Positions 1-5,996 of a DNA stretch of 5,996 bases are shown here, piece by piece. Below the pieces are notes generated by a model that was not told the DNA's origin, searched no databases, and saw nothing but the letters and a program-made list of their open reading frames with translations. A program made the position numbers and the translations under genes. Numbering within the stretch: the stretch's first letter is position 1; the number at the start of each line of letters is the position of its first letter. Source of the stretch: a virus (Duplodnaviria > Heunggongvirae > Uroviricota > Caudoviricetes); IMG/VR virus record IMGVR_UViG_2713896729_000002, positions 1 to 5,996 of that record; one strand, given 5' to 3'.

Positions 1-330
1 GATGCTGCCATTGCCCGCGCCGATGAAACGATACGCGGGTACATGGGAACGTCAGCCACCATTACATCCGGTGAGCAGTCAGGTGCGGTGATACGTGGTG
101 TTTTTGATGACCCTGAAAATATCAGCTATGCCGGACAGGGCGTGCGCGTTGAAGGCTCCAGCCCGTCCCTGTTTGTCCGGACTGATGATGCGCGGCAGCT
201 GCGGCGTGGAGACACGCTGACCATCGGTGAGGAAAATTTCTGGGTAGATCGGGTTTCGCCGGATGATGGCGGAAGTTGTCATCTCTGGCTTGGACGGGGC
301 GTACCGCCTGCCGTTAACCGTCGCCGCTGA
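1..330 (+). CDS. FII: Lambda-like head-tail joining / tail attachment protein FII; 5' end (about 8 codons) lies outside the window
   Basis: Frame 1 is open from position 1 (DAAIARADETIRGYMGTSATI...) to TGA at 328-330. The translation matches my recollection of phage lambda gpFII, and the gene order FII-Z-U-V follows. The track ORF 43..330 is only the internal-Met version. Confidence 0.85.
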   Translation, partial: DAAIARADETIRGYMGTSATITSGEQSGAVIRGVFDDPENISYAGQGVRVEGSSPSLFVRTDDARQLRRGDTLTIGEENFWVDRVSPDDGGSCHLWLGRGVPPAVNRRR

Positions 331-341
331 AAGGGGGATGT

Positions 342-920
342 ATGGTCATAAAAGGTCTTGAGCAGGCCGTTGAAAACCTCAGCCGTATCAGCAGAACGGC
401 GGTGCCCGGTGCCGCCGCAATGGCCATTAACCGCGTTGCTTCATCCGCGATATCGCAGTCGGCGTCACAGGTTGCCCGTGAGACAAAGGTACGCCGGAAA
501 CTGGTAAAGGAAAGGGCCAGGCTGAAAAGGGCCACGGTCAAAAATCCGCAGGCCAGAATCAGGGTTAACCGGGGGGATTTGCCCGTAATAAAGCTGGGTA
601 ACGCGCGGATTGTCCTGTCCCGACGCAGGCGTCGTAAAAAGGGGCAGCGTTCAGCCCTGAAAGGTGGCGGCAGCGTGCTTGTGGTGGGAAACCGTCGTAT
701 TCCCGGCGCGTTTATTCAGCAACTGAAAAATGGCCGCTGGCATGTCATGCAGCGTGTGGCCGGGAAAAACCGTTACCCCATTGATGTGGTGAAAATCCCG
801 ATGGCGGTGCCGCTGACCACGGCGTTTAAACAGAATATTGAGCGGATACGGCGTGAGCGTCTTCCGAAAGAGCTGGGCTATGCGCTGCAGCATCAACTGA
901 GGATGGTAATAAAGCGATGA
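342..920 (+). CDS. Z: Lambda-like tail completion protein Z (minor tail protein Z), 192 aa
   Basis: ORF 342..920 with a GGGGGA ribosome-binding site 5-10 nt upstream. The protein (MVIKGLEQAVENLSRISRTAVPGAAAMAINRV...) matches lambda gpZ from memory, including the basic RRRRRKKGQR stretch. Its stop overlaps the U start (ATGA at 917-920). Confidence 0.9.
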   Translation: MVIKGLEQAVENLSRISRTAVPGAAAMAINRVASSAISQSASQVARETKVRRKLVKERARLKRATVKNPQARIRVNRGDLPVIKLGNARIVLSRRRRRKKGQRSALKGGGSVLVVGNRRIPGAFIQQLKNGRWHVMQRVAGKNRYPIDVVKIPMAVPLTTAFKQNIERIRRERLPKELGYALQHQLRMVIKR

Positions 921-1312
921 AACATACTGAACTCCGTGCAGCCGTACTGGATGCACTGGAGAAGCATGACACCGGGGCGACGCTTTTTGATGGTCGCCCC
1001 GCTGTTTTTGATGAGGAAGATTTTCCGGCAATTGCCGTTTATCTCACCGGCGCTGAATACACGGGCGAAGAGCTGGACAGCGATACCTGGCAGGCGGAGC
1101 TGCATATCGAAGTTTTCCTGCCTGCTCAGGTGCCGGATTCAGAGCTGGATGCGTGGATGGAGTCCCGGATTTATCCGGTGATGAGCGATATCCCGGCACT
1201 GTCAGATTTGATCACCAGTATGGTGGCCAGTGGCTATGACTACCGGCGCGACGATGATGCGGGCCTGTGGAGTTCAGCCGATCTGACTTATGTCATTACC
1301 TATGAAATGTGA
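917..1312 (+). CDS. U: Lambda-like tail tube terminator protein U (minor tail protein U), 131 aa
   Basis: ORF 917..1312. The protein ([36 protein letters not shown]...) matches lambda gpU from memory. It is translationally coupled to Z through the ATGA overlap. Confidence 0.9.
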
Positions 1313-1319
1313 GGACGCT

Positions 1320-1609
1320 ATGCCTGTACCAAATCCTACAATGCCGGTGAAAGGTGCCGGGACCACCCTGTGGGTTTATAAGGGGAGCGGTGACCCTTAT
1401 GCGAACCCGCTTTCAGACGTTGACTGGTCGCGTCTGGCAAAAGTTAAAGACCTGACGCCCGGCGAACTGACCGCTGAGTCCTATGACGACAGCTATCTCG
1501 ATGATGAAGATGCAGACTGGACTGCGACCGGGCAGGGGCAGAAATCTGCCGGAGATACCAGCTTCACGCTGGCGTGGATGCCCGGAGAGCAGGGGCAGCA
1601 GGCGCTGCT
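1320..1609 (+). CDS. V: Lambda-like major tail tube protein V, N-terminal ~96 codons only; truncated by the N-run at 1610
   Basis: ATG at 1320 is preceded by GAGGA (1311-1315). The translation [36 protein letters not shown]... matches the lambda gpV N-terminus. The track ORF 1290..1682 starts at an upstream in-frame ATG inside U and runs through the N gap into unrelated repeat sequence, so its 3' part is an artefact. Confidence 0.8.
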
Positions 1610-1619
1610 NNNNNNNNNN
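1610..1619. other. Assembly gap (10 N)
   Basis: Run of exactly 10 n. Sequence character changes abruptly across it, from phage V coding sequence to LDR repeat. Confidence 0.95.
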
Positions 1620-1842
1620 ACTTCCACAAGTAAATATTGGCAACCCGAGCTGGAAGCCTCATCCAGAGCACTCATGAAATGACTGTAACAGCTGTTGAAA
1701 AACCGGAATGCACTCTTCATTGCAAACATTTCAGGGATGAAGTGAAGATGAATTGAGTCGTAGTATCCACACCAAGCCGGCGTTATCCGGTGAGGCGCAA
1801 TGTTGCGGGGGCTTTATCCCTGGTGGCATTGGTTGCTGGAAA

Positions 1843-1908
1843 GAGAAAACCCCCGCACGTTGAGAGGTACAACCTGACAACAGAACGGGGGCTAATCTTG
1901 AACCAGAA
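1843..1908 (-). ncRNA. rdl: Rdl-like cis-antisense RNA (antitoxin of Ldr), copy 1; coordinates approximate
   Basis: In characterised ldr/rdl loci the ~66-nt Rdl RNA lies about 50-115 nt upstream of the ldr ATG on the opposite strand. At that position the minus strand has a hairpin (CCCCCG 1850-1855 pairing with CGGGGG 1886-1891) followed by a minus-strand U-tract (plus aagagaaaa 1841-1849), which fits an intrinsic terminator at the predicted 3' end. A weak minus-strand promoter-like TTGTAA-N17-TATTCT lies just upstream (plus ~1912-1940). Confidence 0.5.
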
Positions 1909-1956
1909 CAATTCAAGAATAGCCGCAAAATGTTGTCATTACAACAAGGCGGCTAT

Positions 1957-2064
1957 ATGACGCTCGCGCAGTTTGCCATGATTTTCTGGGACGACCTGGC
2001 AGCACCGATCCTGGCGGGAATTATTACCGCAGCGATTGTCGGCTGGTGGCGTAACCGGAAGTAA
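1957..2064 (+). CDS. ldr: Ldr-family type I toxin peptide, 35 aa (MTLAQFAMIFWDDLAAPILAGIITAAIVGWWRNRK)
   Basis: ATG at 1957, TAA at 2062-2064. It is a small hydrophobic peptide with a basic C-terminus (WWRNRK), recognised as the E. coli LdrA-D family. It is not in the supplied ORF track because it is too short. Confidence 0.8.
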   Translation: MTLAQFAMIFWDDLAAPILAGIITAAIVGWWRNRK

Positions 2065-2113
2065 GGTGAAAACGGGCGTCAGGCTGCCGTGATGGCAATA
2101 TGCGCCCGAAACC

Positions 2114-2147
2114 GGCCGCAGGGGTAACAGCCTGCGGCCATTTTTGT
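2114..2147 (+). terminator. Rho-independent terminator downstream of ldr copy 1
   Basis: Perfect 9-bp stem GGCCGCAGG (2114-2122) pairing with CCTGCGGCC (2131-2139), an 8-nt loop, then ATTTTTGTCTTT. Confidence 0.65.
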
Positions 2148-2377
2148 CTTTATCTCTTCCACAAGTAAATATTGGCAACCCGAGCTGGAAGCATCATCCA
2201 GAGCACTCATGAAACGACTGCAACAGCTGTTGAAAAGCCGGAATGTACTCTTTATTGCAAACATTTCAGGGATGAAGTGAAGATGAATTGAGAAGTAGTA
2301 TCCACACCAAGCCGGAATTATCCGGTGAGGCGCAATGTTGCGGGGGCTTTATCCCTGGTGGCATTGGTTGCTGGAAA

Positions 2378-2443
2378 GAGAAAACCCCCGCACGTTGAGA
2401 GGTAAAACCTGACAACAGAACGGGGGCTAATCTTGAAACCAGA
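2378..2443 (-). ncRNA. rdl: Rdl-like cis-antisense RNA, copy 2; coordinates approximate
   Basis: Same hairpin plus U-tract architecture as copy 1, shifted by 535 bp (CCCCCG ... CGGGGG around 2385-2426). Confidence 0.5.
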
Positions 2444-2491
2444 CACTTCAAGAATAGCCGCAAAATGTTGTCATTACAACAAGGCGGCTAT

Positions 2492-2599
2492 ATGACGCTC
2501 GCGCAGTTTGCCATGATTTTCTGGCACGACCTGGCAGCACCGATCCTGGCGGGGATTATTACCGCAGCGATTGTCAGCTGGTGGCGTAACCGGAAGTAA
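2492..2599 (+). CDS. ldr: Ldr-family type I toxin peptide, 35 aa (MTLAQFAMIFWHDLAAPILAGIITAAIVSWWRNRK)
   Basis: ATG at 2492, TAA at 2597-2599. It differs from copy 1 at two residues (D12H, G29S). Confidence 0.8.
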   Translation: MTLAQFAMIFWHDLAAPILAGIITAAIVSWWRNRK

Positions 2600-2638
2600 G
2601 GTGAAAACGGGCGTCAGGCTGCCGTGATGGCAATATGC

Positions 2639-2648
2639 NNNNNNNNNN
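2639..2648. other. Assembly gap (10 N)
   Basis: Run of 10 n that truncates LDR copy 2 at the point equivalent to 2104 in copy 1. It lies 258 bp upstream of the gltX start. Confidence 0.95.
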
Positions 2649-2813
2649 CCGCTGTGTGGAGTCGCATTATAGGGAGAGTTCAAAATGAGTCAACGCATTT
2701 TCTAAAGAAATTGTTCGTTCGTCGTAAATTTAAGCAAGATGATCGCAAAACAGACCGTGTTGCGCAATTTGTCAACGAAAACAATAATGCGTAAGGTAGA
2801 AACCCGAACTACA

Positions 2814-2841
2814 TTGAGGAATCAGGCGGGAGTGATAGAAT
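2814..2841 (+). promoter_or_regulatory. Putative sigma70 promoter for gltX (TTGAGG, 16-bp spacer, extended -10 TGaTAGAAT)
   Basis: -35-like TTGAGG at 2814-2819 and TG-extended -10 TAGAAT at 2836-2841. AAGG Shine-Dalgarno at 2895-2898 precedes the ATG at 2907. This is a motif-only call. Confidence 0.3.
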
Positions 2842-2906
2842 ATCGCCCACTCAATTTTTCCAGGATTTGCCGGTTGTCGGCATCTTTCTAAACGTAAGGC
2901 CATTTC

Positions 2907-4322
2907 ATGAAAATCAAAACTCGCTTCGCGCCAAGCCCAACAGGCTATCTGCACGTTGGCGGCGCGCGTACTGCTCTTTACTCCTGGCTTTTTGCACGTA
3001 ACCACGGCGGTGAGTTCGTGCTGCGTATTGAAGACACCGATCTTGAGCGTTCCACGCCGGAAGCTATCGAAGCCATTATGGATGGCATGAACTGGCTGAG
3101 CCTGGAGTGGGATGAAGGTCCGTACTACCAGACCAAACGTTTTGATCGCTACAACGCGGTGATCGATCAGATGCTGGAAGAGGGCACTGCTTATAAATGC
3201 TATTGCTCTAAAGAGCGCCTGGAAGCGCTGCGCGAAGAGCAAATGGCGAAAGGTGAGAAGCCGCGTTATGACGGTCGCTGCCGCCACAGCCATGAGCATC
3301 ATGCTGATGATGAACCGTGTGTTGTACGTTTTGCTAACCCGCAGGAAGGTTCTGTTGTTTTTGACGATCAGATCCGTGGTCCGATCGAGTTCAGCAACCA
3401 GGAACTGGACGATCTTATTATCCGCCGTACCGATGGTTCCCCAACCTATAACTTCTGTGTGGTTGTCGATGACTGGGATATGGAAATCACCCACGTTATC
3501 CGTGGCGAAGACCATATCAACAACACGCCACGCCAGATCAACATTCTTAAGGCCCTGAAAGCGCCGGTGCCGGTTTACGCGCACGTTTCTATGATCAATG
3601 GCGATGACGGTAAAAAACTGTCCAAACGTCACGGGGCAGTCAGCGTAATGCAGTATCGTGATGACGGTTATTTGCCAGAAGCACTGCTGAACTATCTGGT
3701 GCGTCTGGGCTGGTCCCACGGCGATCAGGAAATCTTCACTCGTGAAGAGATGATCAAATACTTCACTTTGAATGCCGTCAGCAAATCTGCCAGTGCGTTC
3801 AACACCGACAAGCTGCTGTGGCTGAACCATCACTACATTAACGCGCTGCCGCCGGAGTATGTTGCTACTCACTTACAGTGGCACATTGAGCAGGAAAATA
3901 TCGATACCCGTAACGGCCCGCAGCTGGCTGATCTGGTGAAACTGCTGGGCGAACGCTGCAAGACGCTGAAAGAGATGGCACAGAGCTGCCGTTATTTCTA
4001 CGAAGATTTTGCTGAGTTCGATGCCGACGCCGCGAAAAAACATCTGCGTCCGGTAGCGCGTCAGCCGCTGGAAGTGGTTCGTGACAAACTGGCCGCGATT
4101 ACTGACTGGACCGCTGAAAACGTTCATCACGCTATTCAGGCGACGGCGGATGAGCTGGAAGTGGGTATGGGTAAAGTTGGTATGCCGCTGCGTGTCGCCG
4201 TAACCGGTGCGGGGCAGTCTCCAGCACTGGATGTTACCGTTCACGCAATTGGTAAGACCCGCAGTATCGAGCGTATCAACAAAGCGCTGGATTTTATTGC
4301 TGAACGCGAAAATCAGCAGTAA
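2907..4322 (+). CDS. gltX: Glutamyl-tRNA synthetase (class I aminoacyl-tRNA synthetase), 471 aa
   Basis: ORF 2907..4322. It has the class I HIGH-type motif ([19 protein letters not shown]), a KMSKS-type motif (KLSKR), and the Zn-binding Cys/His cluster (CYC...CRH). Length and sequence match E. coli GltX as I recall it. Confidence 0.97.
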
Positions 4323-4335
4323 TTAGCGTGTAAAA

Positions 4336-4372
4336 AGATAAACGGCAGGAGATAATATCCTGCCGTTTTTTA
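4336..4372. terminator. Bidirectional rho-independent terminator between convergent gltX and yfeD
   Basis: Perfect 10-bp stem AACGGCAGGA (4341-4350) pairing with TCCTGCCGTT (4358-4367), loop GATAATA, followed by TTTTTTATTTA on the plus strand and preceded by TAAAAAGATA, which gives a U-tract for the minus-strand transcript. Confidence 0.75.
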
Positions 4373-4373
4373 T

Positions 4374-4658
4374 TTATGCTGATTCGTCAATATCGAGACG
4401 GGCGAGGAAATTGCGAATTCCTTCACGTGACAAAAATTGCGCGACTTTTTCCTGCTCAATGTCTGTCATATTATCTATCGCGTTGATGATTTGTCGATAC
4501 GCCGGGGCGCGTGCTCCAGGAGCGTATTCAGCAATTCTCTCTTCAGCTTCCATCAACATTGGTGTGTTATGGAAGGCTGGCGTGTTCTGAATAAACTCGC
4601 AAACTTGCGTATCGACCAGAATAAGTCTGGCACGACCGCCTTTCACGCCGGGAAATTT
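4374..4658 (-). pseudogene. yfeD: yfeD-like small DNA-binding protein (DUF1323), C-terminal ~94 codons; reading frame interrupted at 4658/4659 by an IS insertion
   Basis: Minus-strand frame is open from the stop at 4374-4376 up to 4658 (...KFPGVKGGRARLILVDTQVCEF...DIDESA). The track ORF 4374..4646 starts at GTG, which is an internal Val of the native protein as I recall it (...GWKTEKFPGVKGG...). Convergent placement next to gltX matches E. coli synteny. The N-terminal part continues on the far side of the IS (5985-5996 encodes WKTE on the minus strand, in frame). Confidence 0.6.
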
Positions 4659-4664
4659 AATGAG

Positions 4665-4676
4665 ATGGTCACTCCC
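4665..4676. repeat. Left subterminal inverted repeat of the IS (ATGGTCACTCCC)
   Basis: Exact reverse complement of 5970-5981. Confidence 0.7.
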
Positions 4677-4724
4677 TCCTTCCCGGTACTATGCTGAGGA
4701 CAGGCTTTCATTCGGAGAACTATC

Positions 4725-5729
4725 ATGGAAAACATTGCGCTCATTGGTATCGATCTGGGTAAAAACTCTTTCCATATTCATTGCCAGGATCGTCGCGGGA
4801 AGGCTGTTTACCGTAAAAAATTTACCCGGCCAAAGTTGATCGAATTTTTGGCGACATGCCCCGCTACAACCATCGCAATGGAAGCCTGTGGCGGTTCTCA
4901 CTTTATGGCACGCAAGTTGGAAGAGTTGGGGCATTCCCCAAAGCTGATATCACCACAATTTGTCCGCCCGTTCGTTAAAAGCAATAAAAACGACTTTGTC
5001 GACGCCGAAGCTATTTGTGAAGCTGCATCGCGTCCGTCTATGCGTTTTGTGCAGCCCAGAACGGAATCTCAGCAGGCAATGCGGGCTCTGCATCGTGTCC
5101 GTGAATCCCTGGTTCAGGATAAGGTAAAAACAACCAATCAAATGCATGCTTTTCTGCTGGAATTTGGCATTAGCGTTCCCCGAGGAGCTGCCGTTATTAG
5201 CCGACTGAGTACCATTCTTGAGGATAATAGTTTGCCTCTTTACCTCAGCCAGTTATTGCTGAAATTACAACAGCATTATCACTATCTTGTTGAGCAGATT
5301 AAAGATTTGGAATCCCAGTTGAAACGAAAGTTGGACGAAGATGAGGTTGGACAGCGCTTGCTGAGCATTCCCTGCGTCGGAACACTGACAGCGAGTACTA
5401 TTTCAACTGAGATTGGCGACGGGAAGCAGTACGCCAGCAGCCGTGACTTTGCGGCGGCAACAGGGCTTGTACCTCGGCAGTACAGCACGGGAGGTAGGAC
5501 GACATTGCTGGGAATTAGTAAGCGAGGTAATAAAAAGATCCGAACTTTGTTGGTTCAATGTGCCAGGGTATTCATACAAAAACTGGAACACCAGTCTGGC
5601 AAATTGGCCGATTGGGTCAGGGATTTACTGTGCCGGAAAAGCAACTTTGTCGTCACTTGTGCTCTGGCAAACAAGCTGGCCAGAATAGCCTGGGCCCTAA
5701 CGGCACGACAGCAAACTTATGTAGCATAA
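4725..5729 (+). CDS. IS110-family transposase / DEDD recombinase, 334 aa
   Basis: ORF 4725..5729 with GGAGA ribosome-binding site 7 nt upstream. N-terminal MENIALIGIDLGKNSF has the conserved RuvC-like catalytic Asp (DEDD_Tnp_IS110 type). The C-terminal region has the Transposase_20-type signature (IPCVGTLTASTISTEIGDGKQYASSRDFAAATGLVPRQYSTGG). Confidence 0.9.
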   Translation: MENIALIGIDLGKNSFHIHCQDRRGKAVYRKKFTRPKLIEFLATCPATTIAMEACGGSHFMARKLEELGHSPKLISPQFVRPFVKSNKNDFVDAEAICEAASRPSMRFVQPRTESQQAMRALHRVRESLVQDKVKTTNQMHAFLLEFGISVPRGAAVISRLSTILEDNSLPLYLSQLLLKLQQHYHYLVEQIKDLESQLKRKLDEDEVGQRLLSIPCVGTLTASTISTEIGDGKQYASSRDFAAATGLVPRQYSTGGRTTLLGISKRGNKKIRTLLVQCARVFIQKLEHQSGKLADWVRDLLCRKSNFVVTCALANKLARIAWALTARQQTYVA

Positions 5730-5969
5730 CGGCAGAAATACACCGGTTTAAAGAATTACTGATCTGGTTTTGCGAATACTGATATTGATGATACTAACGG
5801 CCCACCGGCCTGTTGAGGAACCTGTAAAACGGAAAGGCTCATTGAAGCCGTATATTTTCTGGAGGTTCATCAGGCGCGGAACTCATCAAGGCGCGGGAAT
5901 AAAATCCCATTCAGACGCCGGATAGATTCAAGCAAGCCAACTTGTCGTCAAAATCGGTGTTGCAAAAAC
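5730..5969 (+). ncRNA. Putative IS-encoded guide RNA (seekRNA / bridge-RNA-like) in the non-coding right end of the IS; boundaries unknown
   Basis: 240 bp between the transposase stop and the right inverted repeat has no ORF of 60 aa or more that lies wholly inside it. It contains AAAACGGAAA (5826-5835), the reverse complement of target flank TTTCCGTTTT, followed 2 nt later by CTCATT (5838-5843), the reverse complement of the IS left terminal hexamer AATGAG. It also has an imperfect direct repeat, CATCAGGCGCGGAA (5869-5882) and CATCAAGGCGCGGGAA (5885-5900). IS110/IS1111 elements are known to encode such RNAs in their long non-coding end. Confidence 0.35.
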
Positions 5970-5981
5970 GGGAGTGACCAT
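5970..5981. repeat. Right subterminal inverted repeat of the IS (GGGAGTGACCAT)
   Basis: Exact reverse complement of 4665-4676, 3 bp from the inferred right end. Confidence 0.7.
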
Positions 5982-5984
5982 AGA

Positions 5985-5996
5985 TTCCGTTTTCCA
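5985..5996 (-). pseudogene. yfeD: yfeD, 5'-proximal part resuming after the IS (continues beyond the window)
   Basis: Minus-strand codons at 5985-5996 read W-K-T-E, which joins in frame to KFPGVKGG at 4658 and downstream once 4659-5984 is removed. This matches the recalled native YfeD sequence ...REKGWKTEKFPGVKGGRARL... Confidence 0.5.

Follow-up and report, generated by a model that had tools for sequence, protein, structure and literature searches.

The stretch of DNA analysed here (5,996 nucleotides, hereafter the window) almost certainly comes from a draft Escherichia coli assembly and consists of three contigs that belong to distant parts of the chromosome, are joined by spacers of 10 Ns and end at repeats that the assembly did not resolve. 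The joins at the gaps are an ordinary artefact of draft assembly and not a biological feature. The parts that they connect, a lambda-type head-tail module (contig 1), two units of a tandem LDR (ldr/rdl) array (contig 2) and the gltX-yfeD region with an insertion sequence (contig 3), are all known E. coli elements in their ordinary state and hold no novelty (Table 1).

Table 1. Features of the 5,996-nt window, with coordinates counted from its first base
Feature	Position	Strand	Evidence or remark
FII-type head-tail joining gene, 3' part (start outside the window)	1..330	+	Pfam Phage_attach, E 6e-18
Lambda Z-type minor tail gene	342..920	+	Pfam Minor_tail_Z, E 1e-81, full length
Lambda U-type tail terminator gene	917..1312	+	Pfam Phage_tail_U, E 7.5e-62, full length
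V major tail/tail tube gene, 5' fragment (96 2/3 of 246 codons)	1320..1609	+	Phage_TTP_12
Gap 1	1610..1619	.	10-N spacer between unrelated contigs; junction in 0/5,426 closed genomes
LDR unit A core	1620..2103	+	ldr ORF 1957-2064 (+), rdl RNA 1844-1909 (-)
Inter-unit linker, 51 bp, with ldr terminator hairpin 2114-2139	2104..2154	+	Terminator scan
LDR unit B core, mosaic	2155..2638	+	ldr ORF 2492-2599 (+), rdl RNA 2379-2444 (-)
Gap 2	2639..2648	.	10-N spacer between unrelated contigs; junction in 0/5,426 closed genomes
gltX-valU intergenic region, complete, 258 bp	2649..2906	+	257/258 identical to K-12
Predicted promoter (TTGACT-16-TATAAT), presumably that of the valU operon, orphaned	2666..2693	-	11/12 consensus matches
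gltX, glutamate--tRNA ligase, complete	2907..4322	+	Pfam tRNA-synt_1c, E 2e-125, and Anticodon_2; RefSeq annotation
yfeD, 3' part (YfeC-like regulator), interrupted by the IS	4374..4658	-	Pfam YfeC-like, profile positions 35-122 of 122
IS4321/IS5075-like element, IS1111 group, complete, 1,326 bp	4659..5984	+	Ends set against K-12
yfeD, resumed after the IS	5985..5996	-	K-12 sequence continues at the next base, 5985

The three pieces in closed genomes

The only runs of Ns in the window are those of the two gaps, and each is exactly 10 nucleotides long, as stated in the initial annotation, which took this length for a conventional spacer. The G+C contents of the three pieces are 0.569, 0.505 and 0.492, respectively. 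Both joins combine an N run of fixed length with flanks that are not adjacent in finished genomes and with contig ends at repeat boundaries. In their short length, their unrelated flanks and their breakpoints at repeats they are like the fixed-length N spacers of draft (WGS) scaffolds, and we found no feature that distinguishes them from these.

The evidence for non-adjacency comes from a comparison with 5,426 closed E. coli genomes. The whole window was found in one place in none of these 5,426 genomes, none of which reached 80% coverage, and the best single-place match consisted of positions 2649-5996 only (56%). Gap-straddling queries of about 830 bp were also used, with about 410 bp on each side and with both sides required within about 900 bp. 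Neither the junction of V with LDR nor that of LDR with gltX was recovered from any of the 5,426 closed genomes, and the best places for each query took one side only (49% of the query). Exact-pattern scans across gap 1 in genome and viral contigs, across gap 2 in metagenome contigs, and with an N-free LDR stretch specific to this strain in genome contigs gave no hits either. The caution that scaffold joins are no proof of adjacency was thus well founded.

Inside single genomes, the pieces are located 0.9-2 Mb apart. In L73, the positions are 1.398 Mb for gltX, 2.753 Mb for LDR and 3.477 Mb for the matching prophage; gltX and LDR are found at 1.390 and 2.656 Mb in ATCC 8739, and 1.435 and 2.338 Mb in EcPF16, where LDR is on the opposite strand. 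The distance from LDR to gltX is 0.9-1.35 Mb in the genomes compared. Furthermore, every closed array examined has the context chaA-[LDR array]-kdsA. These flanks are not in the window, where the prophage stands at the left and gltX at the right instead, and the missing chaA-kdsA context is itself an artefact. The suspicion that the order prophage-LDR-gltX may have been produced by scaffolding was borne out when the contig order was checked against the closed genomes, since the pieces were found to be far apart.

No closed genome contains an identical copy of contig 1 (best identity 99.1%) or of contig 2 (best identity 99.3%), and the strain's own arrangement has therefore been deduced from its relatives. 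All 3,348 bp of contig 3, with the insertion sequence, are present unchanged in EcPF16 (100% identity). A side observation concerns EcPF16 itself (NZ_CP054224.1, 2.29-2.72 Mb; L014-L016), which carries a large inversion relative to the gene order of ATCC 8739 and K-12. The segment at 1.22-1.64 Mb in K-12 is flipped, and genes of the Qin prophage are joined to ycgH beside copies of IS3. This inversion has put the LDR array of EcPF16 on the other strand and has reduced its distance from gltX to 0.90 Mb.

The N runs also generate spurious open reading frames. The predicted proteins with a string of Xs at 1290..1682, 1413..1643, 1483..1677, 1493..1729 and 2474..2683 had been explained as translations across the gaps, and all of them are indeed present, with 3-4 Xs each. 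Two more gap-crossing open reading frames were seen at a cut-off of 30 amino acids, 1564..1671 on the minus strand (35 amino acids) and 2624..2794 on the plus strand (56 amino acids), and these are likewise artefacts.

Repeats at the ends of contigs 1 and 2

At each contig end, the assembler would have met a repeat that it could not resolve, and the contig would have been broken there. We infer that repeats were collapsed when this genome was assembled, that the breaks result from this, and that the contigs stand in an arbitrary order. The breaks of contigs 2 and 3 are located at the boundaries of exact repeats, and that of contig 1 possibly at a repeat too, as described below for each of the contigs.

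Contig 1 has the same gene order and gene overlaps as the FII-Z-U-V segment of phage lambda, and its FII part is collinear with FII of CE0021a and lambda. There are four base differences from lambda across positions 1100-1609, and the N-terminus of V, as far as it is present, has the same amino acid sequence as in lambda. Unlike in lambda, V is cut at codon 97 and the genes G, T, H and later are missing. Since V is 741 bp long both in the closest closed prophage (L004) and in lambda, gap 1 cuts the gene in the middle, as had been proposed, and the fragment covers positions 1-79 of the 135 positions in the Pfam profile Phage_TTP_12. Contig 1 breaks off within a part of the lambda-type V gene that is conserved among lambdoid prophages. 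Its end falls in a stretch of 95 bp (window positions 1533-1627) in which five lambda-type V alleles do not differ. In the closed genomes that carry lambda-type head-tail DNA, such DNA was found at a median of 2 places, with a maximum of 8. Judged by sequence, the end is consistent with the collapse of two co-resident prophages in the assembly; its position in the invariant stretch of V can only suggest a repeat boundary.

Contig 2 (1620-2638; 1,019 bp) contains two LDR units with a period of 535 bp, which differ at 20 positions (95.9% identity). Both units have the hallmarks of the family, a tandem unit of about 530 bp, an Ldr toxin of 35 amino acids and an antisense Rdl RNA. Matches to the Pfam family Ldr_toxin (E 2e-23 in unit A, E 1.7e-24 in unit B) are accompanied by matches to the Rfam family rdlD (RF01813) of 86 and 91 bits, respectively, both above the gathering score. 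The Ldr proteins of the two units differ by two residue changes in unit B relative to unit A, D12H and G29S. The period, the 35-amino-acid Ldr reading frame with its antisense Rdl RNA and the identical linker of 51 bp are all as in the LDR-A/B/C array between chaA and kdsA. The window differs from this array in that both chromosomal flanks are absent, unit A is followed by another unit and unit B is a mosaic.

Contig 2 would represent a piece from within this tandem array, with its two ends at the invariant linker. The 51-bp linker is identical at all internal positions in the arrays of L002 (four positions), L005 (two), L006 (two) and EcPF16 (two). The first base of the contig, 1620, is the first base past the linker and at the same time the first base that discriminates unit A from unit B (A, versus T at 2155), while the last base, 2638, is the last one ahead of the linker, 62 nt past the last difference between the units (2576). 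Both ends are thus at edges of the invariant linker, which means that both gaps abut the same repeated element. Unit B stops at the base before the linker, which leaves its genes whole but the repeat unit incomplete and without its terminator. The claim that gap 2 truncates the second LDR copy is therefore correct in the sense that the linker and the terminator are gone beyond 2638, with ldr and rdl left complete. The sequence missing directly after 2638 is GCCCGAAACC..., with the ldr terminator, and neither a tRNA nor the gltX leader.

One observation speaks against our preferred explanation at this site: the 3' end of contig 2 is placed 62 nt inside a stretch shared by all units, and not at a point of divergence. 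We also considered other causes. LDR-D could be dismissed as the reason for the 3' end, since LDR-D in K-12 is only about 79-80% identical and too divergent to matter. The idea that the ends of contig 2 correspond to the entry and exit points of the array was rejected in part, since the homology of the last unit runs 36 nt past the end in closed arrays.

The internal structure of contig 2 is more complex. The terminal unit of the three-unit arrays in ATCC 8739 and L73 is identical to unit A, unit U3 of EcPF16 differs from it by a single base, and 100% identical copies of unit A are present in many closed genomes. In the closed three-unit arrays, unit A is followed by the kdsA flank, whereas in the window it leads into an internal linker and then into another unit. 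Unit B has a head of the U2 type and a tail that alternates between variants of U1, U2 and U3. A plain majority consensus of U1, U2 and U3 was considered for unit B and is contradicted, for example at position 2294. The mosaic could reflect real gene conversion between tandem units or the merging of bubbles by the assembler. The exact junction of unit A, linker and unit B (1985-2260) was found in 0 of the 5,426 closed genomes, with a best identity of 99.3%; an array of five units is present in L002. Either the strain has a longer array, or contig 2 arose from a collapsed repeat, as a chimeric path or as one in which bubbles were merged. As contig 2 may be a collapsed or chimeric path of this kind, the number of LDR copies in the strain and the order of the units are not to be read from it.

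The gltX leader, the tRNA array and the insertion in yfeD

In K-12 MG1655, gltX ends at 2,520,672 and valU starts at 2,520,931, which leaves exactly 258 bp between the two genes. The initial annotation had placed a tRNA cluster at about this distance from gltX and had proposed a comparison of positions 2649-2906 with the K-12 intergenic region; when made, this comparison gave a match at all positions except one. In ATCC 8739, EcPF16 and K-12, a tRNA-Val gene ends one base before the homologue of position 2649. The genes valU, valX and valY are identical copies of 76 bp, and their outer flanks split at the first base (C next to valU, A next to valX and valY), so that unique sequence begins with 2649, directly behind an exact repeat. 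Contig 3 thus begins at the first unique base beside valU, one of three identical and adjacent tRNA-Val genes. A query of 296 bp, consisting of valX, the spacer, valU and 100 bp of the leader, was covered to at least 80% in 5,421 of the 5,426 closed genomes, which makes the tRNA array the almost universal neighbour of the leader. The number of places matched by this query in a genome had a median of 5, confirming the repetition of tRNA-Val.

On the strength of these matches, the real chromosome to the left of 2649 continues with the valU-valX-valY-lysV array, and it is this array that is absent here. The proposal that gap 2 replaces the tRNA cluster holds for this side of the gap, since valU-valX-valY-lysV adjoins 2649; it does not hold for the left flank, which is LDR without its own linker and terminator. 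Gap 2 joins contigs from sites 0.9-1.35 Mb apart, each of which has lost its own repeat neighbour.

A further trace of the missing array is a predicted sigma-70 promoter on the minus strand that faces gap 2, running from 2693 to 2666, with 17 nt between its -10 hexamer and the edge of the contig. The promoter scan gave 2 sites versus 0.3 expected, and a GC-rich stretch (GCGACTCC) follows the predicted promoter. From its sequence and position, this is presumably the promoter of the valU operon, orphaned by the contig break. A literature search for published work on divergent promoters of gltX and valU found nothing relevant. From 2649 to 4658, through the leader, gltX and the part of yfeD before the insertion sequence, a single base differs from K-12, namely 2852 (C in the window, T in K-12). 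It belongs to the leader and lies downstream of a second promoter-like site (2814-2841).

In comparison with the K-12 locus, the intergenic region, the complete gltX gene and the divergent predicted promoter at the edge are retained, and yfeD is the same up to the insertion sequence. The differences are that the tRNA genes are absent from the window and that yfeD is broken by an IS4321-like element. The collinearity of yfeD with K-12 extends to 4658, and the gene is annotated as a pseudogene in EcPF16. The transposase of the element (4725-5729) matches the Pfam families DEDD_Tnp_IS110 and Transposase_20, and is named 'IS110-like element IS4321 family transposase' in RefSeq. [quoted passage not shown] The element in the window agrees with this group in its DEDD transposase, its subterminal inverted repeats, its downstream non-coding region and the lack of a target duplication. 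IS1111-type elements encode a seekRNA in the non-coding region downstream of the transposase gene (PMC11187229). A search of the element for a seekRNA or bridge-RNA family in Rfam gave no match at a permissive threshold, only a chance snoRNA hit (E 0.74).

The insertion in yfeD is located between AAATTT and TTCCGTTTTCC, and the same yfeD::IS junction is present in 171 of the 5,426 closed E. coli genomes. This target may be a chromosomal mimic of a Tn21-type terminal repeat, in which case it would be analogous to ureC::IS5075 in Klebsiella (PMC8269217).

The ends of the three contigs might also hint at how the assembly was made. One possibility, which is a conjecture, is that they derive from de Bruijn unitigs with k=63 that were written without the k-1 prefix. 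This would account for the points where contig 2 starts (the first base that discriminates units A and B) and stops (62 nt past their last difference), and for the first base of contig 3, with which unique sequence begins. Against a pure k=63 unitig stands the finding that contig 2 crosses exact runs shared by units A and B of 87 and 78 nt. Contig 1 speaks neither for nor against it, as the nearest polymorphisms among the five V alleles are 77-79 nt before its end, and not 62 nt.

Alternative explanations and implications

Could the joins have been made from read pairs, and reflect a real rearrangement in which prophage, LDR and gltX leader follow each other, each gap standing for no more than a few bases? 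Some scaffolders insert a fixed run of 10 Ns for small or negative gap estimates, which would fit small gaps, and the lack of a closed genome identical to contigs 1 and 2 means that the strain is not directly represented in the comparison. However, besides the absence of both junctions from the 5,426 closed genomes, the breakpoints coincide with the edges of exact repeats, to the base at tRNA-Val and at the linker in LDR, which is a signature of an assembler and not of recombination. V would furthermore remain as a stump of 96 codons, transcription from the predicted valU promoter would run into an LDR unit, and EcPF16, the genome that is identical to contig 3, has a normal valU array at this site. 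We consider such a rearrangement exceedingly unlikely. It is highly improbable that one join at least is real, for example through the duplication or translocation of an LDR segment to a site beside the valU end of the gltX leader, or, in a milder form, that the strain has an unsampled LDR array of at least four units with a new mosaic unit.

Another explanation is that the contigs were ordered along a reference, so that their order is meaningful and the gaps stand for large regions that were left unassembled or omitted. The relative orientation of LDR and gltX is indeed the same in the window as in ATCC 8739, L73 and K-12, but in the forward direction these genomes have gltX and then LDR, whereas the window has LDR and then gltX, so that, going forward from LDR, one would reach gltX only after about 3.4 Mb round the chromosome. 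In EcPF16, which is closest to contig 3, the two have the reverse relative orientation; the position of the prophage differs between genomes, and three markers on a circle cannot fix an order. An order taken from a reference is very improbable. That the N runs simply hide 10 real bases of continuous sequence would agree with the fact that both are equally short, but the flanks are non-collinear in all 5,426 closed genomes, and 10 bases cannot link codon 97 of V to LDR, or LDR to the base beside valU. With the window as a whole and both junctions absent from the closed genomes, masked bases are refuted as an explanation, and we give them practically no credence. We therefore retain the explanation of three contigs from distant sites joined by conventional spacers.

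The relevance of these findings is one of data hygiene only, and they open no biological question. Any inference from gene neighbourhood across 1610-1619 or 2639-2648 would mislead, since the prophage is not beside LDR and LDR is not beside gltX. The seven X-bearing open reading frames of at least 30 amino acids that run over the gaps are artefacts of the spacers. Likewise, the cut V gene and the LDR unit that lacks its terminator should not be taken for pseudogenes or for signs of decay.
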